A DNA stretch of 64,000 nt from Escherichia coli (GTDB lineage Bacteria; Pseudomonadota; Gammaproteobacteria; Enterobacterales; Enterobacteriaceae): the NCBI RefSeq assembly GCF_048403405.1, contig NZ_CP183129.1; one strand, given 5' to 3'. Made by a program: the position numbers. The stretch's first letter is position 1, and every line of letters begins with the position of its first letter. Of the stretch, positions 54,701 to 57,700 are shown one piece after another.

Positions 54701-57700
54701 GAAATAAGCCAGTAACGCGATGACTGCGAGAGTTATAGATACCAGTGGAATATGCCCCAGCCAACCCGGCATATTTTTGCTTTTGGCGCTTGCCACACAG
54801 TTCTTATCGAAAGCCTTCAATTTTTTGATTAGCCATTTTGCTTTATAAGCTGCTTTTATGCCCCAGCGTTCTCCTCTGGAAGCGGCTGTTTTATCACTCA
54901 TTTCCCCCTCCGGTAATCAGTGAGTCTGATTTATCTCATGCTTGTCGTCTATCGTTAATACAATTTTAGGTCGATTTTTAATCATTGTCTACATCTTGTG
55001 AGTTATGCACATATCCACGGTCACCAAGCCAGTGCAACCCGATGCCAACAAGCAATCGGGTAAACGGGAGCGTACAGGGCATCGGCCCTGATGGTGGCGG
55101 TGGGTATGTGTATAACTTTTTTGTTGCCTTCATATAAAAATCTTATTCTTTCATCTGGATGGATTTATTGAATTTGATTTTTTATGTCAGTTTAAGTAAG
55201 TTTTTAATATGTATCCGAGTCCTTGTATATAGGAGATGATAATATGAATTTTATTTTTTGGTTTGTGGTCTTAATAGGGGCGGGATATTTGTGGAGGAGG
55301 AGGGGTTGGTTCAGTAAAATAAGGAAGCAATACTCAAGGAGAAAAACAACATTAAATGGTAACAAAGGATGTTTATATAATAAAAAAAATGACAATGATG
55401 CTTTGGAAGGTAATGGGGATTGTAATAATTTTTATTCTGAGAATAAAGAAAGTTTCTTTTGGTTAATGATTGAGAGAGGTATTAAATTTTACAGAAAAGA
55501 ATATTTGACTACGATTACTGAAAAAAATATCATGATAAGTTAGTGAGCTGGTTTGGTGAGAAATGTTATATACATTGTCAGGTTAGTTTAGGGAGTTTAT
55601 TTATATTCCCAAAACAAAAAAATTTTACTGATGAAGAACAAAAACGTTTTTTTTCTGTTTGTAATAGAATGTCCTTGGATTTTATTTTAACATTTAAAAC
55701 TAATATGCCCTTCTTACGTGTTTCTGTTGACTCTATGAAAAATAAACCGCCTGTTTGGGATGTTTATGATAAATCCAAATAAAAACATATCTGATTGTTG
55801 AGTTTTCGTGATTAAAGATGGCATTGATTATTAATACGATGAAGAACCAACAAGGGGATATTTAATAAAGAGAAAAAGGAGGATGTAAAATATTCTCCTT
55901 TTTCTTTATCGGGTATTGACGAAAAAAGAAAGTTTGATTAAATTTACCACGTTACACCGTTGCTTAATGCAACATTGCCAATGCTTCGGTTGTCTGAGAG
56001 AAGCGCCTACGGGTGACAACAATGCCAATCCGGCAATCTGAGAGGAACGCCTACGGGTGATTGCCACTGCCAATCCTCGGGTCATCTGAGACGAGGGCCT
56101 ACGGGCGATGACAGAACTCCGTTCGTCCTTGAAATCGACGGAGGGTGATAACAGAATAGCGTTATCATCAGGATTAACTGCACTTCAGTGACCATGTCAC
56201 AGCTATCCGGTCACTCGGATATCCACAAAAAAGCAGAGTATGCGATAACGTGTATCTGCCTCTTCTGATGTGTTCTGACGAATACGTCCTGCTTTCTGCA
56301 ACCTTTGTATGCCCGGTATGACGCGTTTCCATTGCGCAGCTTTGGAAAGCGGCATCTTCGGAGCAATACATTGAGCAGCAGAATGATGGGCGTGCGTCAC
56401 TTTCGTCAAGTGAAACGAAGACAAAGTGACGCACGCAAGTGCATACGCTCAGAACGCTTCAATACTGGTCTTACAGCAAAACTGACAATCTGACAGACAT
56501 GTAATGCATTGCTCAGAACGGCTGAAAGTCTTTCAACGCTCAACGTTTATATGATGATAAAAACGTATAACATTATGAAAAAAGGAGAAAAAACGACACG
56601 ATACCAAGGCGACGTCAGGAAACTGACGGACGGAGGTGCCCTGATAACGGGGGCCGGTCTGATGACCGCAAACAGTTCAGAGAACTGATTTGATACCTCT
56701 CAACAACTCAACCTTTTATCGCCCCGGTGCTCAGGTATCTGTCAGGTCGCAGGATGCGCAATATAAAACCGTCGCGCCGGGAAAAGGTAACCAGTTGAGA
56801 GCGAAAGAGGCGGAGAATCAGAGAATGTCCAGAAGAGCAAAAGCCCTGTCCCGTGAAATGCATATCCTTGCACGTCAGGCCGGAGGGAGCTTTAAAACCA
56901 TTGCAGACCGGGTCAAAATTGCAGAACGGGTTGCGGCAGAGCTGGCCGGGTTGAATATTCAGATACGATCTGTTGAGCAACTGAAATCCCGCCATATTGA
57001 AATGTATATCCATGCCCGCAGAGAACAGAATATCAGTTTACGCAGCTGTCAAAACGAAATGTCGGCTATCCGGGCGATATTTCGTGTTGCCGGACGTCAT
57101 AAACTGGCTGACCCTAAACATGAGCGCCTCAGTAATGAGGCGCTGGGGCTTTCAGGTGCCAGCAGGGCTGGCACCCGTACCGCGATATCGGACGAGCGCT
57201 TTCACGAAGCGCTCGCTCGGATTGAGCCTTATGATCAGGGGGTGGCATTAACTATGCAGTTATCCCGTAGTCTGGGATTGAGAAATGAAGAAGCCGTGCA
57301 GTCAGTAAAATCATTACGGACCTGGCAACAGGCGCTTAAAAACGGTAAAGATCGCGTTCATGTGGTTTTTGGGACAAAAGGAGGCAGACCCCGTGAAGCA
57401 TTAGTGCCGGATAAAGCCCGTGTATTAACATTAATTAATAAAGCCATTGAATATGCGGATAAACATAACGGTTATTTAATTAATCGTCCGTCATTACATT
57501 CTGCCAAAGATCGTTATATTAATGTGATGCGACGGATAGGCGGATTTATTCACGAAGAATCAAATCATGGTTTACGGTATGCCTATGCTCAGGATGTTGA
57601 AAAATATTATCTCAGTCAGGGATTCAGTCAAAAGGAAGCCTATGCATTAACCTCCATGGATTTAGGGCATGGTGACGGTCGTGGCGATTATATTAAACGG

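Follow-up and report, generated by a model that had tools for sequence, protein, structure and literature searches.

What is the function of the seemingly non-coding DNA that lies in front of a recombinase-like gene in an Escherichia coli mobile element? We analysed a 64,000-nucleotide stretch of E. coli DNA (NCBI RefSeq assembly GCF_048403405.1, contig NZ_CP183129.1; hereafter the window). The element in it is an integrating conjugative element (ICE), in which about 650 bp (56176-56824) lie between a copy of the STAXI RNA motif and a gene for a tyrosine recombinase. An initial annotation of this DNA had described a near-perfect long hairpin at 56385-56432 in this region. The hairpin is real and its stem is perfect over 14 bp, but those coordinates were about 5 nt off (Table 1). 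From sequence comparison, it appears to be a conserved cis element associated with the recombinase, and its function is the subject of this analysis.

The two arms of the hairpin, GCGTGCGTCACTTT (56390-56403) and AAAGTGACGCACGC (56423-56436), are 14 nt each and 100% complementary, with 19 nt in between. The folding prediction that the initial annotation had called for indicated that the hairpin is stable as single-stranded DNA (ssDNA) on both strands: the predicted DNA fold had −20.5 kcal/mol on the + strand (z −4.0, with 1/200 shuffles equally good) and −20.6 kcal/mol on the − strand (z −5.0, with 0/200). The core pattern GCGTCACTT-N15-27-AAGTGACGC occurred once in the 64-kb window and in 0/100 shuffles. 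No second hairpin site was found in the window, where only isolated octamers at chance level were seen; a single copy is what is expected for a resolution site. An Rfam scan of 56116-56830 up to E = 10 returned nothing over 56390-56436. The long hairpin is an undescribed element, which is in no Rfam family and is covered by neither the STAXI model nor that of EFASI, a second RNA motif found nearer to the gene. The flanking repeats belong to STAXI, with its three tandem pseudoknot units, and the long hairpin does not. When examined as an intrinsic terminator, it showed no T/U run, since the + strand continues after the stem with AAGTGCATACGC and the − strand with CCATCATTCTGC; a terminator-like match on the − strand was a different 8-pair fold that overlaps the 3' arm.

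The initial annotation had also proposed a search for similar hairpins at equivalent positions in related elements. They were found upstream of all recombinase homologues with enough flank, 270-520 nt away and on the same strand, at more than 90 loci; in the window, the gene begins ~390 nt downstream of the hairpin. These loci span Enterobacterales, Thiothrix and Burkholderiaceae, go down to 34% protein identity and include Pantoea/Erwinia plasmids. A metagenome scan with protein alignment added 80 loci, and 73 of them had the hairpin 430-520 nt upstream with no substitution in its arms; the other 7 had cut-off flanks. Among distant plasmid homologues, it was located 270-475 nt upstream in K. 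michiganensis (43% protein identity), Salmonella (50%), Thiothrix (34%) and four Burkholderiaceae (35%). In the opposite direction, a scan of viral contigs with the bare palindrome gave 17 matches, and 5 of these had a recombinase homologue ~310-440 nt downstream in the same orientation. In three IMG/VR contigs classed as viral (loci L026, L027 and L029), which encode recombinase homologues of 44-52% identity, the hairpin ~310 nt upstream of the gene has a TTTA tip when read on the gene-sense strand. Hairpin and gene occur together on 8-14 kb plasmids typed as non-mobilizable and on a tRNA-flanked P4-like island. The hairpin goes with the neighbouring tyrosine-recombinase gene and not with conjugation.

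In an alignment of 15 spacers, the mean identity was 59%, with GCGTCACTT and AAGTGACGC invariant, and the eight core pairs (GCGTCACT/AGTGACGC) were unchanged in 46/46 distinct variants. The next two pairs covaried, with U-A in 42 and G-C in 4 at the first position, and G-C in 29, U-A in 13, C-G in 2 and A-U in 1 at the second. The covariation score was 0.158, compared with 0.076 in shuffles (0/500 as high), and the proposed structure gave 85% paired cells, compared with 23-49% for slid controls. The outer stem is 2-8 bp long and covaries, a bulged G on its 5' side being needed in 16/50 flank variants; a Y-G/A-C internal loop comes next in Enterobacterales hairpins. At the tip, the closing pair also covaries (U-A 17, C-G 16). 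The invariant octamers are as little as 12 nt apart in Thiothrix (13-6-13) and up to 24 nt apart elsewhere, a variation that a fixed dimer on linear duplex DNA would hardly accommodate but that is immaterial if the arms pair together. The hairpin is more deeply conserved than either STAXI or EFASI.

Most enterobacterial tips, and that of Thiothrix, are G...A loops on the + strand (GAA, GTA, GCA, GATA, GTTA, GGTA, GTAA, GGTTTA and GCAGA); the exceptions are one AAA, a TTTA group from viral contigs, and the differing Burkholderiaceae tips. Wobbles in the outer stem, counted with the register taken into account, were 18 G-T and 6 A-C, whereas the raw count without register correction showed no bias of G-T over A-C. 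L040, L090 and the Burkholderiaceae loci L123-L125 had more + strand wobbles in their inner stems. Both the G...A loops and the G-T wobbles favour the + strand, suggesting that this is the strand that folds. Strong selection on a strand-specific hairpin makes a function as single-stranded nucleic acid plausible. The distal part in the window (56407-56417), like the matching tips of L013, L014 and L016, holds a third copy of the 3'-arm motif (AAGTGA). Many lineages have this copy, and L011, L021, L003, L120, Thiothrix and Burkholderiaceae lack it; where it is present, the 5' arm could pair with either copy, forming a short or a long hairpin.

The protein encoded downstream has R153, K185, H248, R251, H282 and Y289/Y294 as invariant residues in 19 sequences, and their motif context (GLRxEE, GTKGGR, HxLRY and LGH...Y) suggests that they are the catalytic R-K-H-R-H/W-Y set. 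PDB searches with the protein sequence and with a profile gave no recombinase; only the fold search did. The AlphaFold model (predicted local distance difference test score, pLDDT, 85.6) matched lambda Int, Tn1549 Int, XerH and Cre over ~310 columns, with a template modelling (TM) score of ~0.5 and a probability of 1.0. Judged by its sequence and this model, the protein is a simple two-domain Cre/Xer-like tyrosine recombinase without an arm-binding domain. Its family, PF12834/PF12835, is uncharacterised but widespread.

At least five lineages have mosaic junctions at the hairpin. L088 keeps 97-100% identity to the window up to 3 nt beyond the hairpin and is unrelated thereafter, with a divergent EFASI and a recombinase gene that is only 54% identical. 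The partner switches at the last base of the 3' arm in L119, at +15 from the hairpin in L101 and within the 5' arm in L059; divergence begins at ~+6 in L057 and L098. L015 carries, at 5700-6510, a second EFASI followed by a truncated 129-amino-acid (aa) recombinase-like open reading frame (ORF), with the hairpin missing; homology of this second copy to the first starts ~20 nt 3' of the expected hairpin position.

The two-way linkage with the gene, the invariant arms, the one copy per element and the junctions all point to the recombinase's own site. Tentatively, we read the hairpin as a cis site cognate to the neighbouring Cre/Xer-like recombinase, which would recognise its folded form, in a plasmid/ICE resolution or cointegration module; the reading is plausible, and we put it forward with reservation. 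The two inverted elements of a canonical tyrosine-recombinase core site, GCGTCACT and AGTGACGC, are present and invariant. Together, site and gene would make up a self-contained module for site-specific recombination in plasmids, ICEs and integrated islands, with the resolution and formation of multimers or cointegrates as its most likely role. In extruded or single-stranded + strand DNA, the two invariant arms would pair and give one fixed 10-11-bp duplex bounded by helix irregularity; the recombinase would bind and read this paired-arm duplex, and strand exchange would take place at or just 3' of it. A folded substrate, like attC or CTX attP, is what both the strand-specific fold and the non-canonical spacing suggest. 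If cointegration is involved, Rahnella plasmids that carry STAXI, the hairpin and EFASI but lack the gene could hitch-hike, which would account for their having these elements.

Several observations weigh against a recombinase site. The canonical central region of 6-8 bp was not found: the arms are 19-23 nt apart in the window, and only Thiothrix has a 13-6-13 layout, so that the recombination mechanism would have to be unusual, acting on a folded substrate. A promoter precedes STAXI and the hairpin is probably transcribed on the + strand, and the G-U wobbles and G...A loops suit RNA as well as DNA. The Rahnella plasmids keep the three elements without a recombinase gene and already have a XerCD-type site. 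As to the junctions, a pairwise breakpoint histogram also clusters at ~−100 and ~+300 nt from the hairpin, and coarse discordance counts at the hairpin were similar to those at a control junction, with no excess; the enrichment at the hairpin is therefore suggestive rather than demonstrated. Homologous exchange within the most conserved block could yield the same junctions.

In the main rival reading, the hairpin is no DNA site but an RNA element in a structured leader (STAXI, hairpin, EFASI) of the recombinase mRNA, where it would control stability, processing or translation, possibly as a protein-binding site on the transcript. A promoter-like site, TTGnnn-17-TAnnnT, is located at a fixed offset before most of 23 STAXI copies (15 loci, in L002-L021), implying a transcript whose 5' end is STAXI. 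Ahead of the promoter of STAXI copy 1, the preceding unit of the window ends in a terminator-like hairpin with a T-run (55871-55905), and no intrinsic terminator was found between STAXI and the recombinase gene. Judged by these signals, the unit is very probably transcribed on the + strand from STAXI, and transcription from this promoter would place the hairpin and EFASI in the long leader as well. The G-T wobbles and the mostly G...A tips are on the same, sense strand, and additional small covarying hairpins occur along the spacer. The 3' tail of EFASI pairs near the ribosome-binding region: the window has CCCCGG/CCGGG, and Pantoea (L002, ~3465-3475 with 3518-3528) has CCCCGATG/CATCGGGG, a compensatory change suggesting that the EFASI structure may extend toward that region. 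STAXI and EFASI RNA were detected in E. coli vesicles by reverse transcription quantitative PCR (PMC12370729), and Weinberg et al. (2010), who left RNA or ssDNA action of STAXI open, leaned to RNA on account of the UUCG loops of the motif (PMC2864571). However, eight invariant pairs across beta- and gamma-proteobacteria are atypical of RNA, whose helices usually keep pairing and not sequence, and the tips are mostly GNA triloops and GNNA loops with T as the third base, not GNRA tetraloops. Mini-hairpins of the d(GCGAAGC) type (Hirao et al.) are a feature of DNA. Overall, the sequence alone fits either kind of folding, with the invariant helices and GNA/GNNA loops on the side of DNA and the promoter and wobbles on the side of RNA; the attC-like structural features that were seen (pairing at a conserved base, a distal part that varies, some unpaired positions and a bias between strands) likewise fit DNA or RNA. 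A leader element would also leave the mosaic junctions at the hairpin unexplained. We consider a purely RNA role possible but rather doubtful; a place in the leader and a role as the recombinase site are not mutually exclusive. There is only a slim chance that the recombinase binds the invariant hairpin as a handle on a STAXI-hairpin-EFASI RNA, which would scaffold or direct recombination like the bridge RNAs of IS110 and make the enzyme an RNA-associated tyrosine recombinase, or, in a milder version counted within the same slim chance, that a new, widespread family of recombinases uses the hairpin as a folded ssDNA substrate of the attC kind. In both cases STAXI and EFASI would, if this is true, gain a functional context.

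The same junctions, 0-15 nt 3' of the hairpin, are as expected for initiation and termination at a nick, and an origin of transfer (oriT) was considered: the inverted repeat would be recognised on the transferred strand and nicked a few bases 3' of it, either by the MOBH relaxase of the ICE or by the recombinase-like protein as the nicking enzyme. Such a site would also account for the mobilisation of small plasmids that bear it, and relaxase-free Rahnella plasmids do bear it. An oriT would be consistent with the strong conservation of the inverted repeat and its GAA or GNNA loop, with the partly conserved 3' flank AGCGCATAACG, and with the location of the module between traG and traI, where genes for anti-restriction, ArdC and toxins are found, as is typical of a leading region. 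The related ICEclc reportedly has two oriTs that share a repeat motif, as Miyazaki and van der Meer are said to have described in 2011, and the module may be syntenic with these. Nevertheless, a conserved nick sequence was not found, since AGCGCATAACG is common but absent in L003, L063, L089, L120 and Burkholderiaceae. The site travels with the recombinase gene and not with a relaxase or type IV secretion system, as seen on the 8-14 kb plasmids (typed non-mobilizable, without a relaxase on record) and the P4-like island, and TraI is ~8 kb off. Transfer of the + strand would leave the downstream genes pointing away from the nick, opposite to the F-type leading-region rule. An oriT is therefore improbable. 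The initial annotation had placed the hairpin among ssDNA-dependent or RNA elements, naming a site for single-strand initiation (ssi) or an ssDNA promoter; taken as a priming signal or single-strand origin, or as a promoter of the Frpo type, the hairpin would act after conjugative entry or in rolling-circle replication. The general part of that proposal stands, in that the region appears non-coding and structured and is partly EFASI, but both specific DNA mechanisms lack support and are very unlikely. The predicted stability as ssDNA suits them. Tips of the GCGAAGC/GTGAAAC type resemble those at the complementary-strand origin of phage G4. ICEBs1 and Tn916 show that ICEs can bear single-strand origins (PMC5812530). 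On the other hand, the 14-bp stem holds no −35/−10 hexamers and is too short for them, and neither the multi-hairpin layout of an ssi nor a CTG start beside the stem was found. If F is a guide, folding should involve the template strand that is transferred, whereas it appears to be the + strand that folds, and this strand is the coding one for the genes downstream. The Rahnella plasmids already have an annotated ssi, and the strict linkage to the recombinase on theta-type plasmids and the tRNA-flanked P4-like island would remain unexplained.

The remainder of the 650-bp region contains further elements (Table 1). When the whole window was scanned against Rfam, three matches were obtained, two to STAXI and one to EFASI. 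The two repeat copies of the initial annotation are the STAXI motifs, each located downstream of a conserved sigma-70-type promoter; after STAXI copy 2, neither the long hairpin nor EFASI was found. The EFASI match covers the full-length model (positions 1-133) and 152 nt of the region, and its order relative to STAXI and the integrase gene also agreed, so that about a quarter of the region is already catalogued as EFASI. The CGTCAG-GAAA-CTGACG stem-loop, previously noted at ~56605, is real but is located at 56613-56628, and it is the first EFASI hairpin.

Table 1. Position, strand and supporting evidence of the features in and around the region between STAXI copy 1 and the recombinase gene.
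Feature	Position	Strand	Basis or remark
Sigma-70-type promoter TTGACG-17-TAAATT, just upstream of STAXI copy 1	55916..55944	+	Promoter scan
STAXI RNA motif (RF01728), repeat copy 1	55958..56115	+	112.1 bits, gathering score 40.5
Small hairpin TTTCCA/TGGAAA in conserved spacer block	56326..56348	+	Aligns with GCCA...TGGC hairpins elsewhere
Long hairpin, 14-bp perfect stem and 19-nt distal part	56390..56436	+	Inverted-repeat and folding analysis
Invariant 5' arm GCGTCACT(T)	56394..56402	+	Zero substitutions, >90 loci
Tip mini-hairpin GTGAAAC, GAA loop closed by T-A	56410..56416	+	Tip comparison across loci
Invariant 3' arm (A)AGTGACGC	56424..56432	+	Invariant; several mosaic junctions 0-15 nt 3'
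Box TCTGAC-N2-ACATGTAAT, consensus TCTGAC...ACGTAGT	56489..56505	+	Spacer alignment
Hairpin ACGTTT...AAACGT, pairs covary	56543..56566	+	Spacer alignment, pairing search
Shine-Dalgarno-like AAGGAG, conserved	56582..56587	+	Alignment; without start codon behind
EFASI RNA motif (RF02957)	56593..56744	+	78.1 bits, gathering score 51.2
Segment complementary to EFASI 3' tail (56711-56726)	56773..56788	+	~40-50 nt before recombinase start codon
Gene for 302-aa two-domain tyrosine recombinase (PF12834 + PF12835, 'integrase domain-containing protein')	56825..57733	+	Pfam, RefSeq annotation
Second promoter TTGACA-17-AAAAAT and STAXI copy 2	58349..58551 (promoter 58349-58377)	+	Promoter scan, Rfam
STAXI copy 2	58392-58551	+	123.3 bits, gathering score 40.5

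In the TTTCCA/TGGAAA hairpin, pairing is kept across loci despite changes on both sides. An ACGTAG-like box downstream of the hairpin was also found in Thiothrix and Burkholderiaceae; the TCTGAC...ACGTAGT box was considered as a promoter and rejected, its spacing being wrong. The AAGGAG just before EFASI is near-invariant in the window and at the aligned positions of 14 other loci, with no usable start codon. Two pairings were seen in the window and were not evident in the other lineages inspected: that of the hairpin loop with 56324-56334, and that of CTCTCAAC (56697-56704) with GTTGAGAG (56794-56801). As for coding potential, the ORFs of the region are 45-86 aa long, and none reached a Pfam family cut-off. 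A tblastn search against 13 diverged loci gave only short patches over conserved nucleotides, the longer ones being interrupted by stops or gaps, and the spacer alignments contain indels whose lengths are not multiples of three. These results bear out the earlier view that the region has no convincing ORF; homology searches gave no conserved protein-coding gene, and the region is non-coding as judged from the alignments.

The window matches a chromosomal element at 95-100% in 27 of 5,426 complete E. coli genomes, and the recombinase protein is 100% identical in loci of Proteus mirabilis ATCC 29906 and Providencia stuartii among the matches listed. In the RefSeq annotation of one copy, genes for a conjugative ATPase, TIGR03756/7 ICE proteins, TraG-N and DUF3742 precede the non-coding region, and the 'integrase domain-containing protein' gene is followed by those for an SGNH hydrolase, hypothetical proteins, ArdC, the CbtA toxin, DUF1281 and TraI. 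Related plasmids are typed MPF_G/MOBH. Recombinase homologues with 55-87% protein identity were present at 12 genomic loci, from Morganella, Dickeya, Salmonella, Yersinia, Klebsiella, Photorhabdus, Serratia, Lonsdalea, Brenneria and Enterobacter. As far as the contigs permit, each has STAXI, a spacer of 386-514 nt, EFASI, ~110 nt and the gene, usually followed by a second STAXI.

The Rahnella aquatilis plasmid pHW4594 (L003, 6,978 bp) carries STAXI, the hairpin (~5426) and EFASI at 5123-5750 without a recombinase gene, as does NC_019222 (H25). These plasmids are small and ColE1-like, have no mobilisation gene, and already have their own annotated ssi and XerCD-type resolution site; the accessible part of the published pHW4594 description makes no mention of the STAXI-hairpin-EFASI module. 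Islands with isrK and C4 antisense RNA also carry the module (L120, 827-1026 and 5603-5675; L017, 4605-4831), and the L120 island has a P4-type integrase adjoining a tRNA gene; the module is thus not confined to conjugative elements. In Burkholderiaceae plasmids, a highly conserved non-coding block of ~330 nt before the recombinase gene holds the hairpin, a ACGTAGTT box and GC-rich hairpins such as CCACCTCCAGGTGG (L122, 1906-2306; L124, 1433-1833; L125, 1427-1827; and the L126/L123 junction). This block may be an EFASI counterpart below the detection of the Rfam model. An Rfam scan of the Thiothrix locus and two Caballeronia loci detected no STAXI and no EFASI. The Burkholderiaceae hosts include 8-14 kb plasmids, typed as non-mobilizable, with rep, par and toxin-antitoxin genes.

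STAXI (2010) and EFASI (2017) have been orphan motifs whose RNA or ssDNA nature was left unresolved, and the hairpin adds a third element to them. EFASI is described as following STAXI at several hundred bp and preceding integrase genes, with no known function (Rfam text quoted in PMC12370729). This arrangement recurs in the window and in all enterobacterial loci examined; unlike the published motifs, the long hairpin between them extends to Thiothrix and Caballeronia loci where neither was detected. The module is tied to one recombinase family and not to conjugation as such, which offers a testable pair of one protein and one 40-nt site. If it is a resolution/cointegration system, it bears on the stabilising and reshuffling of ICEs, plasmids and small hitch-hiking plasmids in Enterobacterales.

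Among known sites, the oriT of R1162/RSF1010 has ...CTC-GAA-GAG..., and IR2 of R388 has a GAAA loop. The hairpin resembles both in its conserved 10-14 bp stem, its GAA/GAAA loop on one strand and exchange points just 3' of it, but it has neither a conserved nick sequence nor a linkage to a relaxase. Cre/loxP, XerS/difSL and RecHS offer a comparable layout of the gene and its site. IncA/C plasmids encode a recombinase that acts on RecHS, an inverted repeat of 14 bp around a 6-bp spacer; through cointegrates this site mimics an oriT and lets small plasmids hitch-hike (PMC5587640), a precedent that favours reading the hairpin as the site of the neighbouring recombinase. As in these systems, a simple two-domain recombinase gene has a single inverted-repeat site with conserved arms a few hundred bp upstream, and the 13-6-13 hairpin of Thiothrix has the canonical core-site layout. 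The arms are, however, 12-24 nt apart rather than 6-8 bp, and the insert between them can pair with itself and has strand-specific loops, features for which linear duplex sites have no need.

Folded sites such as the integron attC (IntI) and the CTX-phage attP(+) (XerCD) were also compared. The fold search did not single out integron integrases as the closest relatives of the recombinase. Unlike attC, which occurs once per cassette, the hairpin adjoins the recombinase gene and occurs once per element; compared with both sites, its stem is shorter (~12-20 bp), it has only one recognisable conserved box, and its recombination as ssDNA is hypothetical. In common with them, it is an imperfect palindrome that is predicted to fold, with conserved inverse sequences pairing at its base and a variable distal stem-loop; it has unpaired bases (the bulged G in 16/50 flank variants and the Y-G/A-C loop), a strand asymmetry, and junctions in or beside the 3' arm.

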